Assembly: GCA_049511715.1 (NCBI GenBank)
Contig: JBEKXU010000002.1
Location: 100,994 to 164,993, forward strand
DNA length: 64,000 bases
DNA from: Anaerolineales bacterium
GTDB taxonomy: Bacteria > Chloroflexota > Anaerolineae > Anaerolineales > RBG-16-64-43
Reading direction: 5' to 3'
Every line of letters begins with the position of its first letter. The stretch's first letter is position 1. The notes below the pieces were generated by a model. That model saw nothing but the letters and a program-made list of their open reading frames with translations. It was not told where the DNA came from and ran no database searches. Of this stretch, positions 29,336-35,476 are shown one piece after another. The position numbers and the translations under genes were made by a program.

Positions 29336-31000
29336 TCACCAGCCGCTGGCGGCAAAGGCTTGTGACAGCAGGGCCGCGCGCTCGGGTGGGGTCATCGGGC
29401 GCGGGCGGGCATAGTCTTCCAGCATCGCGGTGAGGAGCTCTGTTCCCAGGTAGCGGCCGTCATAGAAGACGTGCCGGTCGATGAATTCCCAGCGGGTGCC
29501 GGGGACGATCTGGCCGAACTGGTTGCGGTAGAGCATTTGGTCAAAGAAAAGGTTGCCGAGCCCATAATGGATGAAGGATCTCTGGTCAAAGGCCATCGCC
29601 TGGGGATAGTGGGATTGGCTTCCGCTGACGATGACCGCGCCGGCGTCGGCCATGGCCTTGAAATCCCGCACCTGATCCGGACGGGGCGGGAAGGTGTAGT
29701 ACTGATAATACTGAAACGTTGCGATCGGTAGGATTCCCTGGCTGCGCAGCTCCCGGATCTGAGCGGTCATGTAGTTCAGGTCGCAGGGGGCCGTCCCTGG
29801 CCGATCCTCCGTGGCCCAGTCATACGCGGGACCGACCGGATTGCAGCCAATAAAGGCAATCCGGTTGCCGTGGTTCGTTAGCACAATCGGCTTGCGCGCG
29901 TCCTCCAGGTTCTCGCCCCCGCCATAATAGGGCCACCCAAGTTGACGGTACAGTTGCAGGGTGTACCTGTCCGCGCTCGTCCCCCAGTCGTTGAGGTGAT
30001 TTCCTGTCAACTCGACGACATCCGTGCCCACATCCTCCAGCAGTTGAATGTAGCGGGGGTCCTCGCAGAAGAAGAGGTCTAATTGGTCCCGGTTTGGATA
30101 GGGGCACCCCGGAGCGAAGGAGGCTTGGTTGCTGATGTGGGTGATGTCCGCATCCCTTAGCCAATCCCCGATGTCGCGGGCCGGATAGTCAATCCCCTTC
30201 TGTTCCATCGTCCAGGCTGTGGCCCGCACCAGCGCGGTCACGCCCGTCATCACCAGAGTCGTCAGTTTGGCCGGGTCGCGGTTGCTGGAGGGCACCGTTC
30301 CCCGCAGGGCCTGGGCCAGGCTCTCCGCCTGTGGGTCAGGCCCGTCAACTCCCAGAGACACCGTCAGGCCATAGGCGGTGGGGCTGAAGTCCTTGTGGAT
30401 CGGCGAGCTGCCGTCCACCTCGAGGACCTTCCAGCGGGGCTCAATGCTTTCGAAGGGAATGATTGCCCAGGCCGGACGGTGAGCCCAGGCGTAGGCGACG
30501 ATTTGGTCCGCAGGCAGCACCTGGGTCGCGCCGGGAGCCGGCGCCTGCCAGGACGCGCTCAGCACGGCAAGCGTATCCTGGCTCATCAGGATGGGTCGCC
30601 CGGCAAAGGGCCCCGAACTTCCTCCCTGCCAGTCGTTGCGCAGGTCCTGCAGGGACACGCCATCCGGGATGGTCGGGAAGGGAGCGACCAGGGCATAAAC
30701 CCAGGCGCTCAGGGGTCGCCGCCCGCCAGCCTCAAGGCGCAAGTTGGCGGAGCTCGAGTCCCGGGTCTGAGAGAAGCCGGAAGGGAACCGCAGCGCGGCG
30801 AGAAAAGCCGCCGGCAGCCCGGGTGAGACCCAGACGCTCGTCACTTGCGGCGCGGCAGTGGGGCTGGGCGTCGGCGTCGCCATGGAGGTCGACTCAGCCG
30901 CCTTGCTGAGCAGGGGCGCGCAGGCACTGGTAAGCAGGATCATGCAAAGCACCCGCAGGGCTGCCCGCGGGTGCCAAGGACGCAGCACCGGCCGAGTCAT
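29336..31000 (-). CDS. CapA/PGA_cap-family metallophosphatase-fold protein, secreted, with extra N-terminal domain
   Basis: The leader is ..LCMILLTSACAPLL. TGNHLNDWG, AFIGCN and VIVSGSQSHYPQAM are present. The ATG at 31000 overlaps the polA stop as ATGA. Confidence 0.7.
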   Translation of the reverse strand: MTRPVLRPWHPRAALRVLCMILLTSACAPLLSKAAESTSMATPTPSPTAAPQVTSVWVSPGLPAAFLAALRFPSGFSQTRDSSSANLRLEAGGRRPLSAWVYALVAPFPTIPDGVSLQDLRNDWQGGSSGPFAGRPILMSQDTLAVLSASWQAPAPGATQVLPADQIVAYAWAHRPAWAIIPFESIEPRWKVLEVDGSSPIHKDFSPTAYGLTVSLGVDGPDPQAESLAQALRGTVPSSNRDPAKLTTLVMTGVTALVRATAWTMEQKGIDYPARDIGDWLRDADITHISNQASFAPGCPYPNRDQLDLFFCEDPRYIQLLEDVGTDVVELTGNHLNDWGTSADRYTLQLYRQLGWPYYGGGENLEDARKPIVLTNHGNRIAFIGCNPVGPAYDWATEDRPGTAPCDLNYMTAQIRELRSQGILPIATFQYYQYYTFPPRPDQVRDFKAMADAGAVIVSGSQSHYPQAMAFDQRSFIHYGLGNLFFDQMLYRNQFGQIVPGTRWEFIDRHVFYDGRYLGTELLTAMLEDYARPRPMTPPERAALLSQAFAASGW

Positions 31001-33762
31001 GAGCGCGGCAGGGCCTCCATTTCTTCCCAATTGTCTCCGGCCTGGCACTCGGTCGAGACTTCTACCGACAGGGCAAGCGCGTGTTCCATCTCACGGGCGG
31101 CAAGCGCAGCCAGTTCCTGGACCTCATTGCGGGGAACGTCGAAGACAAGCTCGTCATGGACCTGGAGGATCATGGAGCCGTGAAGACCGGCCTGAGCCAG
31201 AACCGCGGGGAGGCGAATCATGGCCAGCTTGATCATATCGGCCGCCGTGCCCTGCACTGGCGCGTTGATGGCCTCCCGCTCGGCCCGGTTGCGCGCCGTG
31301 ACGTCGATCCGGGATCCGGGCTGAAGCTCCGGAAAGTACCGGCGTCGGCCGAGCAGGGTTTCGACATAGCCCTGTTCGGCGGCCAGGCGCTTGGTGTGCT
31401 CGATATAGTCTCGGATTCTGGGGAATCGTTCGAAGTAGGCCCGGATGAAAGCTTCGGCCTCCGCGAGAGTGAGGTCGCTGGCCCGAGTCAGGCCGTAGGC
31501 GGTTTGACCGTAGAGCAGGCCAAAGTTGACCGCCTTGGCGTGGCGGCGCATTTCGGGCGTAACCGCTGCGATCGGCACGTTGTAGACCGCCGCCGCCGTG
31601 GCGGCATGAATATCCTCGCCCCGGCGAAACGCCTCGCTCATCCCGGGGTCCTGGGCGATGTGCGCGGCCACGCGCAGCTCGATTTGGGAGTAGTCGATCG
31701 AAACCAGGCGGCATCCCGGCGAGGCAAGGAACGCGCGGCGGATGCGGCGTCCGAGGTCCGTGCGTGTCGGGATGTTCTGAAGGTTCGGGTCGGAGGAGGA
31801 GATTCGTCCCGTCACGGTTCCGGTTTGATGGTAGGAGGTGTGCACCCGCCCGGTCTCCGGGTTGATCTCGCCGAGAAGACCCTCCACAAAGGCAGAGAGC
31901 AGTTTGGAGAGTTCCCGCTGCTGCAGGATGAAATCCACCGCAGGGTGCTCTCCGCGGAGCGATTCCAACACATCCGCCGCCGTGGAGTATTTGCCGGTAG
32001 CCGTCTTGCGCGAGCGGTCGGGCGGTTTGAGCGCCAGGCGGGTGAAGAGCACATCCGCCAGCTGCTGGGTGGAGTTTAGGTTGAAGGAGGTGCCGACCAG
32101 GTCGAAAACCTTTTGCTGAAGTTGCTGCAGATCGTTCCTCCAGGTTTCTCCCAGGCCCTGCAAATAAGCCGAGTCCAGCCGAACGCCTGTCATCTCCATG
32201 CCGGCCAGGACCGGGATCAAAGGCATCTCCAGATCTCCAAAGAGCTTGAGCTGCCCCTTGGACTCGAGCTCGTCTCGGAGCGGCCGGACCAGGCGCAGGG
32301 ATAAGTCGGCGTCGGCGCAGGCGTAGGGGGCCGCCTTCTCGGCCGGCACCTGGTCCATCGTGATCTGCTTGGCCCCTCGGCCGATCAGGTCTTCAATGTG
32401 CGTCATCTCGACTTTCAGACGCACGAAGGCCAGTTCTTTGAGCCCCAGAATGTGCGAGGCGGGATTGCAAAGCCACTCCGCCAGCATGGTGTCGAACGCA
32501 ATCGGCGCAACGGGGAGACCCGCCCGGGCAAGCACCACATAGTCATATTTCAGATTGTGGCCCAGCTTAGGCAGGTGGGGGTCGGAGAGGGGGGCGCGCA
32601 TCCTATCGATCACCGCCTCGATCGCCAGGTTTGGACCGCCGGCGTGACCCAGGGGGATGTAGAAGCCCTCCCCCTCACGGAACGCCAGGGCGATGCCCAC
32701 CAAGCGGGCCCGGATCGGGTCGAGGGAGGTCGTCTCGACGTCGACGGCGAGCTGGGCGGCGCTGCTCAGATCCCTTAGCAGCCCGTCCAGGTCCGGCATC
32801 CCGGCGATCAGGTGCCACTGGGTAGAGGTTGCCCCGGCCGAGGCCTCCTGAACGAACAGAGGAGCCTGGCGCACTTCCTCCAAGGGGGCCGGAAGACGGC
32901 TGAGAAGGGAACGGAATTCGAGCTGGCGGAAGGTCTCCAGGACCTCCGGCCGATCCATGCGGCCGACGCGACAGGATTCCGGATCGAGTCTCACGGGAAC
33001 ATCCCGGCGGATCGCCGAAAGGGTCCTGGACAGGAAGGCGTTCTCTTTTCCCGCCTCCAGCTTCGCCCGCACGCGAGGAAGAAGTTCCTCCAAGCGAGCG
33101 TAGATGGTATCCAGGTCGCCGTATCGCTGCAAAAGGTCCGTCGCCGTTTTCTCCCCGACGCCGCGTACCCCCGGGATGTTGTCCGACTTGTCCCCCACGA
33201 GAGCCTTGAAGTCCACCATCTGGTCCGGACGCACCCCATACTGCTCCAGGACCTTCTGAGGGGTGTAGTCCGTGGATTCCGAGAGAGAGCGGCCCGCCAG
33301 GCGAATGGTCACTTGGTCGGTCACCAGTTGCAGCAAGTCCCGATCCCCGGTCAGGATGATGGATTTCCAGCCGCGGGCCGTGGCCTGCTCCGCCAGGGTT
33401 CCCAGAACATCGTCCGCCTCGTATCCCTCCGCTTCAAAGATCGGCAGGCGGAAGGCGGAAACCACTTGGCGGATGCGCTCAATCTGGGGGGCCAGATCGG
33501 CGGGCATCTTGGCCCGGGTTGCCTTGTAGGCGGGGTACAAGTCGTCCCGAAAAGTGCGCCCGGTGTCGAAGGCCACGGCCAGATTCTCCGGGCGCTCGCG
33601 GTCCAAGAGCGATAGGAGCACGGAGGTAAAGCCATAAACGCCCGCGGTTGGCTCTCCGGAACTCGTGATCCAGCGCGAGGAGTCTGTGCCTGCCCCCGTG
33701 AGAGCGAAGTACGTCCGATAGGCCAGGGCGTGTCCGTCAATCAGATAGAAAAGGGGGACCAT
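30997..33762 (-). CDS. polA: DNA polymerase I
   Basis: The 5'-nuclease N-terminus is LIDGHALAYRTYFA. Polymerase motifs are DYSQIELR (A), RRHAKAVNFGLLYG (B) and QVHDELV (C). ATG at 33762 (MVPLFYLIDG). Confidence 0.95.
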   Translation of the reverse strand: MVPLFYLIDGHALAYRTYFALTGAGTDSSRWITSSGEPTAGVYGFTSVLLSLLDRERPENLAVAFDTGRTFRDDLYPAYKATRAKMPADLAPQIERIRQVVSAFRLPIFEAEGYEADDVLGTLAEQATARGWKSIILTGDRDLLQLVTDQVTIRLAGRSLSESTDYTPQKVLEQYGVRPDQMVDFKALVGDKSDNIPGVRGVGEKTATDLLQRYGDLDTIYARLEELLPRVRAKLEAGKENAFLSRTLSAIRRDVPVRLDPESCRVGRMDRPEVLETFRQLEFRSLLSRLPAPLEEVRQAPLFVQEASAGATSTQWHLIAGMPDLDGLLRDLSSAAQLAVDVETTSLDPIRARLVGIALAFREGEGFYIPLGHAGGPNLAIEAVIDRMRAPLSDPHLPKLGHNLKYDYVVLARAGLPVAPIAFDTMLAEWLCNPASHILGLKELAFVRLKVEMTHIEDLIGRGAKQITMDQVPAEKAAPYACADADLSLRLVRPLRDELESKGQLKLFGDLEMPLIPVLAGMEMTGVRLDSAYLQGLGETWRNDLQQLQQKVFDLVGTSFNLNSTQQLADVLFTRLALKPPDRSRKTATGKYSTAADVLESLRGEHPAVDFILQQRELSKLLSAFVEGLLGEINPETGRVHTSYHQTGTVTGRISSSDPNLQNIPTRTDLGRRIRRAFLASPGCRLVSIDYSQIELRVAAHIAQDPGMSEAFRRGEDIHAATAAAVYNVPIAAVTPEMRRHAKAVNFGLLYGQTAYGLTRASDLTLAEAEAFIRAYFERFPRIRDYIEHTKRLAAEQGYVETLLGRRRYFPELQPGSRIDVTARNRAEREAINAPVQGTAADMIKLAMIRLPAVLAQAGLHGSMILQVHDELVFDVPRNEVQELAALAAREMEHALALSVEVSTECQAGDNWEEMEALPRS

Positions 33763-33781: not shown

Positions 33782-35350
33782 TCAAAGGGGGGAGCCGGAC
33801 GGTGAAGCGAATCGGCCGGTGCGACGTGCCGGGTGGCTTTCGGCAAGGAAGTTTGCGATTTGGCCTGGGGTGGGAGGTTGTTCCTGGGTGGTCAACAAAT
33901 GCGAGCGGGCCCAGAAGTCTCCTGCCTGGCCCTGGGGCACCAAAGAGGGGAAACGTCCGAGCAAATGGTCGGTCGTCATGCTCCGCAGGCGGCCAACGAT
34001 TAGGCTGGGAAGAACCGTGGGCGGAGCGGAGAGGGATACCAGGAGGTAATCCGGGTGGGCACTCACCCGCATGGGACGACAGCCGAGGGCAACCACCAGG
34101 TTGCGAGTGAAGCCCTCCAGGTCGCTGGCCACTTCGGGAACCAGGCGCAGATTCTCGTCCGTGGGCGACAGTACAAGGTGGTAGGTCAGGCGGATGCTGC
34201 CGACCTCCCCCGCGGAGCTCTCGGCAGGTCCGGCACCCTTGAGCGAAAAGGGCGGCTCGGCCGAACCGGCGGAGCCTCTGCCAGGGACCTCTGGCCAGTC
34301 CTGCAACCTGTGGGTGCCCATCGTGTAGATATCCTCGGGTTGCAGCCGGCGGGTCCCCATCGTGTAGATGTCCTCGGGTTGCAGTCTGCGGGTCACACCA
34401 GGCTTGGACTCTTGAGGCCCTCGGGGAGTGGCAACTCCCGTTCCCGCCTTTGTCTGGGGCGCCTCATGAGGGGCCCGGGAAGCCGGGACTTCCGACTCCC
34501 TCACGGGCGGCAGCGGTAGCGCCGGGGGTTCTTCCAAGGCGGCCAGGATCTGCCGAGCCTGAGCTCTCATTCTTGCCGAGGGTTGCCACGTATCGAAGAC
34601 CAGCGTGAGGTGCAGTCCCGCCGGGGCCGGGGTGGAGTACAAGAGATAGTCCTCCTCCCGCGAAGGAACGTTCAGGTAACGCACGACCACCCCACCCATG
34701 GAAGGGGACCAATTCTCCCTGATGGCCTGGGCGGCGGCTTGTGCCTCCGCTGGCTGCAGGTCCCCACAGGCAGCCCACACCTGTCCTGAGCGACTGAGGA
34801 GGCAAGCAGTTGCTTCGATCGTCGGCTGGAGGGAAGCCAGCAGGTCCTGGGCAAAGCGGGGGTCCTGGAGCGGGCTGGGCAACACCTCCGCCGCCTTGGG
34901 AATGGCGCCAGCCGGGGTCTCGGCCGCGCGCATCTCCGTCACGGTGAGGCTGACGGGAGGCCCCGTCGGCATTTCTGGTTTGCGGGCGGCCCGGGCTTCC
35001 AGAAGTTTCCTGATCAGGGGCAGGAAGTCGGGCAGATAGAAAGGCTTGGTCGTTGCGGCTTGAAGCCCGAGAGATTCGACCAACGGGTGATGAGGATCGT
35101 TGTCTGGCGGGATGCCTACCAGGATGAGGCTGGGGTTGAGCGCGCGCAGCGAGCGCACGAATTCCTCCGGTGTCCCCTCCGGAAGGTCCAGATCCAGAAT
35201 GGCCAAGTCGAACGACACCGTCGAGGCCAGGTGCAGCGCTTCCTGGTCGGTCTGGGCCACCTGGCAGTCGTACCCAGCTTCCTGCAAGGCCTGCTGCACC
35301 ATGCCGGCAAAGCCCGGGTTGGGATCAAGGACCAGGATCGAGCTGGCCAT
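33782..35350 (-). CDS. Multi-domain response regulator: receiver + possible Roadblock/LC7-like domain + Pro-rich repeat linker + degenerate IS200/IS605-TnpA-like (HUH/Y1) domain
   Basis: The receiver has ILVLDPNP, LAILDLDLPEG and TKPF. The C-terminus LTYHLVLSP..HPDYLLVSLSAPPTVLPSLIVGRLRS..DFWARSHLLTT..IANFLAE parallels the Y1 transposase layout but lacks the HUH histidines and the catalytic Tyr. Confidence 0.7.
   Translation of the reverse strand: MASSILVLDPNPGFAGMVQQALQEAGYDCQVAQTDQEALHLASTVSFDLAILDLDLPEGTPEEFVRSLRALNPSLILVGIPPDNDPHHPLVESLGLQAATTKPFYLPDFLPLIRKLLEARAARKPEMPTGPPVSLTVTEMRAAETPAGAIPKAAEVLPSPLQDPRFAQDLLASLQPTIEATACLLSRSGQVWAACGDLQPAEAQAAAQAIRENWSPSMGGVVVRYLNVPSREEDYLLYSTPAPAGLHLTLVFDTWQPSARMRAQARQILAALEEPPALPLPPVRESEVPASRAPHEAPQTKAGTGVATPRGPQESKPGVTRRLQPEDIYTMGTRRLQPEDIYTMGTHRLQDWPEVPGRGSAGSAEPPFSLKGAGPAESSAGEVGSIRLTYHLVLSPTDENLRLVPEVASDLEGFTRNLVVALGCRPMRVSAHPDYLLVSLSAPPTVLPSLIVGRLRSMTTDHLLGRFPSLVPQGQAGDFWARSHLLTTQEQPPTPGQIANFLAESHPARRTGRFASPSGSPL
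34313..34390 (-). repeat. In-frame 39-nt tandem duplication (2 copies) inside the response-regulator linker
   Basis: It encodes RRLQPEDIYTMGT twice. At DNA level the copies differ at only 4-5 positions. Confidence 0.85.
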
Positions 35351-35476
35351 ACAAGTAGTTTAGCACAGACTAAGGGGCCAGCCTGGCAAGGGGCTGCGAT
35401 TTGAGAACGAAAGCAGGGGCACATTTGGTGTGCCCCTGCATGGTTCCCGGGCACTTTCGGCCAGAGGGCCGCCGGC

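Follow-up and report, generated by a model that had tools for sequence, protein, structure and literature searches.

In a 64,000-nucleotide stretch of the genome of an Anaerolineales bacterium (Chloroflexota; Anaerolineae; NCBI GenBank assembly GCA_049511715.1, contig JBEKXU010000002.1, positions 100,994 to 164,993 of the forward strand), hereafter the window, to whose numbering the coordinates refer, an open reading frame (ORF) on the minus strand, 33782..35350, encodes a protein of 522 amino acids (aa). According to domain searches and alignments, this protein is made up of three folded domains and one disordered linker: an atypical receiver (REC), a Roadblock-fold domain, the linker and an inactivated IS200-type Y1 domain. 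The C-terminal domain is a true homologue of the Y1 fold of the IS200/IS605 transposases which is without the catalytic residues, and the gene appears, from the sequences compared here, to stand nearest the promoter in a conserved operon which includes polA. We tentatively favour the explanation that, in a host family found across the Anaerolineae, an IS200-type Y1 domain has been co-opted and has lost its chemistry, giving a non-catalytic, DNA polymerase I (Pol I)-linked adaptor which may bind single-stranded or hairpin DNA. New here is a domesticated Y1 domain in an inactive, multi-domain form with a new genomic association; no description of a receiver-Y1 or a receiver-Roadblock-transposase architecture was found in the searchable literature, in agreement with an earlier note on this DNA, made from the sequence alone, which knew of no receiver-Y1 protein.

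That note had allowed for the ORF being a misassembled fusion, which it is not. Among the 162 sequences analysed, all carry the C-terminal domain, 159 the receiver and 157 the middle domain, with the complete three-part layout present in 156, and the same architecture occurs in the genomes of isolates such as Longilinea arvoryzae and Thermanaerothrix daxensis. An assembly artefact is therefore excluded as the origin of the three-part ORF.

An IS200/IS605 Y1 fold at the C-terminus

When the ORF was compared with the Protein Data Bank (PDB) by phmmer, the sequence matches fell into two groups, receiver domains and IS200-type transposases. The latter were matched at 3e-8 over residues 377-508 (2fyx, 2f4f, 2ec2, and 2xm3 and 2xo6 of ISDra2), and a profile of the family's C-terminal domain recovered the same transposases at 1e-21. 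The Pfam family Y1_Tnp (PF01797, 'Transposase IS200 like') was found on residues 387-491 with 30.6 bits against a cut-off of 23, and the NCBIfam equivalog transpos_IS200 scored 37.2 bits, below its cut-off of 55. A model of residues 376-522, built with AlphaFold2 on a 150-sequence alignment of the family, had a mean predicted local distance difference test (pLDDT) score of 88.4 and the order beta-alpha-beta-beta-alpha-beta-alpha; in a Foldseek search of the PDB, each of its top 29 matches was a TnpA of the IS200/IS605 group (E 6e-9 to 1e-5), and 2fyx superposed best (TM 0.84, root mean square deviation 2.0 Å). The TnpA-like (Y1/HuH fold) domain was placed by these searches at residues 386-510 (33821..34195, minus strand), and the fold which the earlier note had ascribed to the output domain is thus confirmed.

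The domain shares with the IS200/IS605 TnpA proteins (ISDra2, 2xm3 and 2xo6; IS608, 2vjv; 2ec2, 2f4f and 2fyx) the same fold and secondary-structure order over about 125 residues, in which the W..(S/G)Y strand and the PP motif have been kept. However, TnpA is a stand-alone protein of 130-150 aa, whereas here it forms the C-terminal domain of a host protein of 500-700 aa. A second point of comparison is provided by the TnpA-REP/RAYT proteins, called the first domesticated prokaryotic transposase in PMC8266576, which are likewise Y1-family proteins kept as host genes and not as parts of a mobile element. RAYTs are catalytic, however, whereas this family has neither the catalytic residues nor REPs nearby, and the window domain is structurally nearer to class 1 IS200 TnpA (E 6e-9) than to RAYT, of which the structure 4er8 appears far down the Foldseek list (E 1e-2).

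Loss of catalysis and conservation of the dead domain

In Y1 transposases the active site is composed of the HuH motif of one monomer and a Tyr on helix alpha-D of the other, as set out in PMC3597680. The catalytic positions of the window protein were located by alignment to ISDra2 TnpA, both the wild type in the PDB (QKYIESQ) and the Y132F mutant 2xo6 (QKFIESQ). The HuH histidines of ISDra2 (PDHVHLLLS) align with Y435 and L437 (PDYLLVS), a remnant Y435-L436-L437 (34040..34048, minus strand) thus standing where active TnpA has H-u-H; the HUH histidines are indeed missing, as the earlier note had it. The nucleophile (Tyr132 of ISDra2, Y127 of IS608) aligns with F501 (QIANFLAES; 33848..33850, minus strand), and four residues on, S505 stands in place of the Gln ligand, Gln136. 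The catalytic Tyr had been mapped in the note to H484, which is the wrong residue, this His ('RSH') being located on strand beta4 within the W..SY motif. Its description of the domain as dead now stands on better grounds, because F501, Y435/L437 and S505 occupy the catalytic positions; the metal-binding His, the Tyr and the Gln have all been replaced. On this alignment the protein cannot be expected to cut or join DNA by the HuH/Tyr mechanism.

None of the 162 family members has HuH plus Tyr. An H-x-H is found in two and the Gln ligand in one, and the nucleophile position is occupied by Phe in 132 and by Tyr in 30. Compared with TnpA, the HuH has become Y-L-L in the window and Y-L-Q in most of the family, Phe is found for the nucleophile Tyr and Ser or Thr for the Gln ligand, the commonest combination being Y-L-Q … F … T. 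The loss of the catalytic residues is thus ancestral in the family. At the same time, 37 C-terminal columns are conserved at 75% or more across the family, amongst them the former catalytic helix, F/Y-I-x-Q-T-R-x-x-Q-G, and the stretch N-P-S-G-D-F-W-A-P-G-Y. As the family is large and so many columns of a dead domain have been conserved, the domain is under purifying selection and no decaying pseudogene. It is also basic, with a median isoelectric point (pI) of 9.1 and conserved Arg residues.

This is a different outcome of domestication: the RAYTs, which are the domesticated Y1 transposases known in bacteria, are still catalytic, whereas here the fold was retained, probably for a very long time and class-wide, with every catalytic residue gone, and has become joined to signalling-type domains and tied to the polA operon. 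The TnpA-Y1 classification published in 2018, which is the most complete one for this superfamily, kept only those sequences with HuH and Y, regarding the rest as probably non-functional, and reports no receiver fusion (PMC6006769); surveys which discard HuH-less sequences in this manner miss this family.

Association with polA

Outside the Chloroflexota the family was not found, and its members are mostly from Anaerolineae. When 1.84 billion representatives were searched exhaustively by phmmer, the clusters at 50% identity numbered at least 109 for E < 1e-30 and 649 for E < 1e-10. For the survey of genomic context one genome per GTDB species was scanned, giving 80 loci. All 80 are from Chloroflexota, mostly Anaerolineales, with isolates (Longilinea arvoryzae and Thermanaerothrix daxensis) represented as well as metagenome-assembled genomes of Anaerolinea thermophila and Bellilinea.

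In the window the gene is followed 20 nucleotides (nt) downstream, with no terminator between, by polA (30997..33762, minus strand), which encodes a full-length Pol I with 5'-3' exonuclease, 3'-5' exonuclease and polymerase domains. The earlier note had observed this gap correctly and had taken it as a hint of a link to DNA transactions; the association goes far beyond what a single short gap would indicate. Wherever the sequence extends far enough past the family gene, the next gene downstream, on the same strand, is polA, L003 being the one exception, and the family gene holds this fixed position in about 76 loci. The remaining neighbours change between loci, and polA is retained even next to relatives at 23-27% identity whose other neighbours all differ. 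The etfAB genes, the acyl-CoA dehydrogenase gene and the PGA_cap gene are common only to close relatives. Directly after polA, a TPR protein of about 775 aa is encoded in 57 loci (e.g., L002 12539-14866 and L048 10599-13022); it is missing in the clade of the window, where the PGA_cap gene takes its place.

The putative start of the operon is marked by TGCTAAACT (35357..35365, minus strand), an extended -10 promoter element lying 6 nt ahead of the start codon, the ATG at 35350. The pattern, TGnTAnnnT (most commonly TGATACACT), was present in 74 of the 78 unique upstream regions of the family, against 0.9% of random 30-nt windows used as a control, and in 51 of these 74 it ends 6-7 nt before the start codon. 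Such a spacing would imply a leaderless mRNA for the family gene, the first of the operon. In the window the element was missed by a consensus promoter scan because there is no good -35 element. Upstream of it, a hairpin search located a strong intrinsic-terminator-like hairpin after etfA (35413..35439, minus strand; an 11-bp stem with 8 GC pairs, then the T tract TTTCGTTCTC), which closes the upstream acyl-CoA dehydrogenase/etfBA unit and separates it from the polA operon. Across the 78 loci no operator-like element or hairpin is conserved upstream of the gene, only the core leaderless promoter.

These data bear upon the reading suggested by the database names of the members ('transposase', 'IS200/IS605 family transposase', 'CheY-like / RayT'), namely that of a mobile-element transposase, still active or only recently decayed, or of a RAYT-type nuclease, fused by chance or misassembly to a response regulator. 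We consider this barely credible. The names, given automatically by NCBI and JGI, and the Pfam Y1_Tnp match speak for it, but it is refuted by the residue and synteny data, with all catalytic residues replaced family-wide and the gene syntenic with polA across the whole class in the loci examined. The NCBIfam score under the cut-off (37 bits against 55) and the conservation of the architecture in isolate genomes are also against it. Unlike TnpA, the family is not mobile: neither a tnpB neighbour nor insertion sequence (IS) ends, with their flanking hairpins, were found at the family loci examined, and the window contains no REP copies and no repeated hairpin family. The note's proposal of a domesticated module is thus upheld, the gene being present as one host gene in conserved synteny, without IS ends, tnpB or REP repeats nearby and with an ancestral loss of catalysis. 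Hundreds of database entries carry the names 'transposase', 'IS200/IS605 family transposase' or 'RayT' although they are neither mobile elements nor nucleases.

Stand-alone 'Y1-only' database entries were considered as possible exceptions and rejected; two of the three checked, on long contigs, are pieces created by frameshifts in long-read assemblies, where polA is broken up as well. In the long-read metagenome assemblies L085 and L087 the family gene and polA have been split by frameshifts into several short ORFs, and the result is spurious 'Y1-only' and 'hypothetical' proteins in the databases. Entries which are 'Roadblock-only' were likewise set aside as short proteins from the same family, some of them on the same frameshifted contigs.

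An atypical receiver

The receiver occupies residues 1-120 (34991..35350, minus strand). It was matched by Pfam Response_reg (PF00072) on residues 5-81 with 32.4 bits against a cut-off of 30.2, and PDB receiver domains align by phmmer to residues 3-125 of the ORF. Its pocket was scored by alignment with CheY and Spo0F, together with those of the 159 family receivers. The acceptor of CheY, D57, corresponds to D53 and is Asp in 155 family members, and K109 corresponds to K102, with Lys in 109 and Arg in 30 (K or R in 139 of 159). At the position of D12 the window has D9 and the family mostly Thr (T 101, D 35, S 20); at that of D13 it has P10, with P 95, A 30 and S 23 in the family and an acidic residue in none; and T87 is replaced by P81, with Pro in 127. 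The window receiver therefore falls short of a complete phosphorylation pocket (the D12/D13 pair, D57, T87 and K109), and the family receivers carry an IPP[DE]N motif where Thr-Ala is usual. The receiver proposed in the earlier note on the basis of D9, D53 and K102 thus stands as a domain, with a score above the Pfam cut-off and with D53 and K102 kept, but not as one with a canonical pocket, given P10 and P81.

In receiver chemistry, D13 holds the Mg2+ which is required for phosphotransfer. Because the equivalent of D13 is never acidic and that of T87 is mostly Pro, a classical phospho-switch in the family receiver is doubtful, although the conserved Asp and Lys would leave some room for an unusual receiver mechanism. 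The atypical or pseudo-receiver response regulators FrzS, HP1043 and NblR offer a parallel, as a receiver fold with an incomplete phosphorylation pocket that is likely without classical phosphotransfer. This family differs from them in keeping the acceptor Asp and the Lys whilst being without the metal-binding Asp and the Thr, in its unique IPP[DE]N motif and in its different partner domains. In RomR of Myxococcus a receiver is followed by a Pro-rich disordered region and a C-terminal interaction region. The two proteins resemble one another in the receiver followed by a long Pro-rich disordered linker, and RomR works in a Roadblock-type system; however, homology is limited to the receiver, and RomR has neither a Y1 domain nor a link with polA.

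It is against this background that a genuine phosphorylation-controlled response regulator must be considered, in which the Y1-like domain would be a DNA-binding output controlling its own operon, including polA, or other targets. This would fit with the Pfam score of the receiver, with the conservation of the acceptor Asp and of Lys or Arg at the K109 position, and with the gene being the first in the operon it would regulate. However, besides the loss of the D13 and T87 equivalents, that of D12 is Thr or Ser in 121 of the 159 receivers, the only conserved upstream element is a core promoter abutting the start codon, with nothing operator-like, and the Y1 domain is absent in some species. No match to a histidine-kinase domain was found in the genes immediately neighbouring the window gene, and no kinase recurs among the neighbours across the 80 loci, an orphan partner elsewhere being possible. 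As the receiver has no Mg site and the gene no conserved kinase neighbour, this is the weaker of the two rival explanations and we regard it as improbable; the description of the domain in the earlier note as the output of a two-component regulator is accordingly doubtful. Among models of defence systems the sole match was SduA, on the receiver, which was marginal (E 1e-3) and was dismissed.

The Roadblock-fold domain and the linker

The middle domain, at residues ~160-275 (34526..34873, minus strand), has no match to a sequence family: in 16 members no Pfam family was found, Robl_LC7 included, even at E values of up to 10, and a profile search with the domain finds only its own family. An AlphaFold2 model of residues 150-285 (pLDDT 88.1; alpha-beta-beta-alpha-beta-beta-beta-alpha) had as its best Foldseek matches MglB (6hjm, E 1e-5; 6izw; 1j3w), 3kye, which is a Streptomyces Roadblock/LC7 domain, and p14/MP1-LAMTOR, with E values of 1e-5 to 5e-4 (TM ~0.6, probability 1.0). 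A Roadblock/LC7 fold is hence predicted with confidence for this domain, the assignment holding at the level of the predicted fold because the model matches MglB, 3kye and LAMTOR; what had been guessed from the sequence is supported by the superposition though not by any match to Robl_LC7. The domain differs from MglB, Roadblock/LC7 and LAMTOR proteins in having no detectable sequence similarity to Pfam Robl_LC7 and in sitting between a receiver and a dead transposase domain, and no small GTPase gene is conserved near the family loci.

The linker, at residues ~276-385 (34196..34525, minus strand), is of low complexity and rich in Pro and Ala, in accord with the Pro-rich linker of the earlier note. 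Linkers in the family are disordered, with a median length of 139 aa (range 52-530 aa), and most are strongly acidic, with a median charge of -17.5. That of the window's clade is shorter and slightly basic, and clade-specific TRRL[QD] motifs are the only conserved ones there. Elsewhere in the family the short motifs [DE][VI]PPPxP, DW[IL]P and FPWE recur. In these otherwise variable acidic linkers, such motifs look like docking peptides, for which the TPR protein encoded after polA could be the partner. Fuller forms of the motifs can be written as [PL][LF]x[DE][VIM]P[PS]PxP and as DW[ILM]P followed by (R/K)xGFLEELL, alongside FPWE (e.g., P0016, P0021, P0027, P0037 and P0041). Whether the [DE][VI]PPPxP motif tracks the TPR gene was also considered, the motif being found in 21 of 49 loci with the gene and in 2 of 15 without it; this weak trend is confounded by phylogeny and was not relied upon.

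A possible role at DNA polymerase I

How might such a protein work? Dimerisation is well established for TnpA, Roadblock and receiver domains alike, and for this reason the protein, acting as a non-catalytic adaptor, would probably be a dimer. The receiver-like and Roadblock domains would provide a dimerising or regulatory platform, the receiver probably not being a classical phospho-switch, and the long disordered linker may recruit partners by means of its short motifs. The dead TnpA domain would keep the non-catalytic role of TnpA, which is to say the binding, on the lagging-strand template, of DNA in single-stranded, hairpin or fork-like form, and the adaptor as a whole might direct or modulate Pol I at gaps, flaps or structured single-stranded DNA. 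Behind the DNA-binding and Pol I parts of this proposal are the basic C-terminal domain of the family and the behaviour of IS608 TnpA, for which the lagging-strand template serves as substrate and which both binds fork-like DNA and makes contact with the beta clamp (PMC5027513).

A more specific form, possible but doubtful, is that of a lineage-specific Pol I accessory factor, in which the dead Y1 domain would recognise hairpin or fork-like single-stranded DNA on the lagging strand, with a dimer of the Roadblock and pseudo-receiver domains and the linker tethering it to Pol I and, in most lineages, to the TPR partner. If the link with Pol I is functional, it would point to a hitherto unknown factor assisting in gap repair or in the processing of Okazaki fragments in the Anaerolineae, which are abundant filamentous bacteria of sludge, sediments and peat. 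Should the accessory-factor reading be true, this would be the first example of core bacterial DNA replication or repair having taken up a dead HuH/Y1 transposase domain.

Several points weigh against the adaptor explanation. Membership of an operon alone does not prove a function shared with Pol I. The C-terminal domain of the window protein is neutral (pI 7.2) and matches 22 of the 37 conserved columns, where the family median is 33 and its relatives P0001-P0010 reach 20-25. Of the conserved family residues, R397, H401, W424, Y484, R506 and Q509 are missing from it. REP-like or hairpin repeat families gave chance-level matches only in the 64-kb window. A stand-alone dead-Y1 paralogue of 164 aa occurs away from polA in some genomes. 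Finally, about seven species (L009, L010, L012, L034, L049, L051 and L054), four of them belonging to the window's PGA_cap clade, have an ORF of 280-360 aa ending at polA (at about 6001-6990 in L009, L010 and L012) which consists of receiver and Roadblock only, with no Y1 remnant anywhere in those loci. As these species keep the receiver and Roadblock domains upstream of polA without it, the Y1 domain is dispensable in some lineages, which does not support it as the essential output of the protein.

The window protein and P0001-P0010 are among the most divergent members of the family. Within their clade, however, no other part of the protein is as well conserved as the C-terminal domain, and we read this as a changed constraint on the domain and not as an absent one.

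The main rival is a pure protein-protein scaffold, in which the dead Y1 domain would be a dimerisation or docking module, like the dimer interface of TnpA, and would bind no nucleic acid. The Roadblock domain and the linker motifs would bind partners such as the TPR protein or a small GTPase, and the tie with Pol I would be one of co-expression or complex assembly. Roadblock/MglB folds are classic platforms for dimerisation and partner binding, and the recurring linker motifs, the TPR protein encoded after polA in 57 loci, the loss of the Y1 domain in about seven species and the window's non-basic C-terminal domain can all be accommodated. Against this, the C-terminal domain of the family is basic, with conserved Arg and His, on a fold known only for the binding and processing of single-stranded DNA, and the association between motif and TPR gene is the weak, phylogeny-confounded one given above. 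We consider the scaffold unlikely, and retain the non-catalytic, DNA-binding adaptor linked to Pol I as our tentative preference.

Further features of the locus

No Rfam families were found in the window. The third gene of the unit, present in this position in the window's clade only, is a PGA_cap-family gene identified by its domain match (29336..31000, minus strand), the ATG of which overlaps the polA stop codon as ATGA (30997-31000, minus strand). The same 4-nt overlap is present in L001 and suggests translational coupling of the two genes.

In the exceptional locus L003 (3644-5203, encoding P0012), where no polA follows, a formate/nitrite transporter gene converges on the family gene and a Ser/Thr protein kinase gene lies upstream. 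In the stand-alone paralogue P0281 (L086, 5001-5495; relatives P0268-P0279) the HuH is replaced by Y-L-Q, and the gene adjoins an Mrr-type restriction gene, a TPR gene and a histidine kinase/response regulator pair.

Within the linker of the window protein, a repeat search and comparison with relatives revealed a 39-nt in-frame tandem duplication (34312..34394), encoding RRLQPEDIYTMGT twice. The doubled form is common to the window and the 79%-identical P0001, and a single copy is present in P0002.

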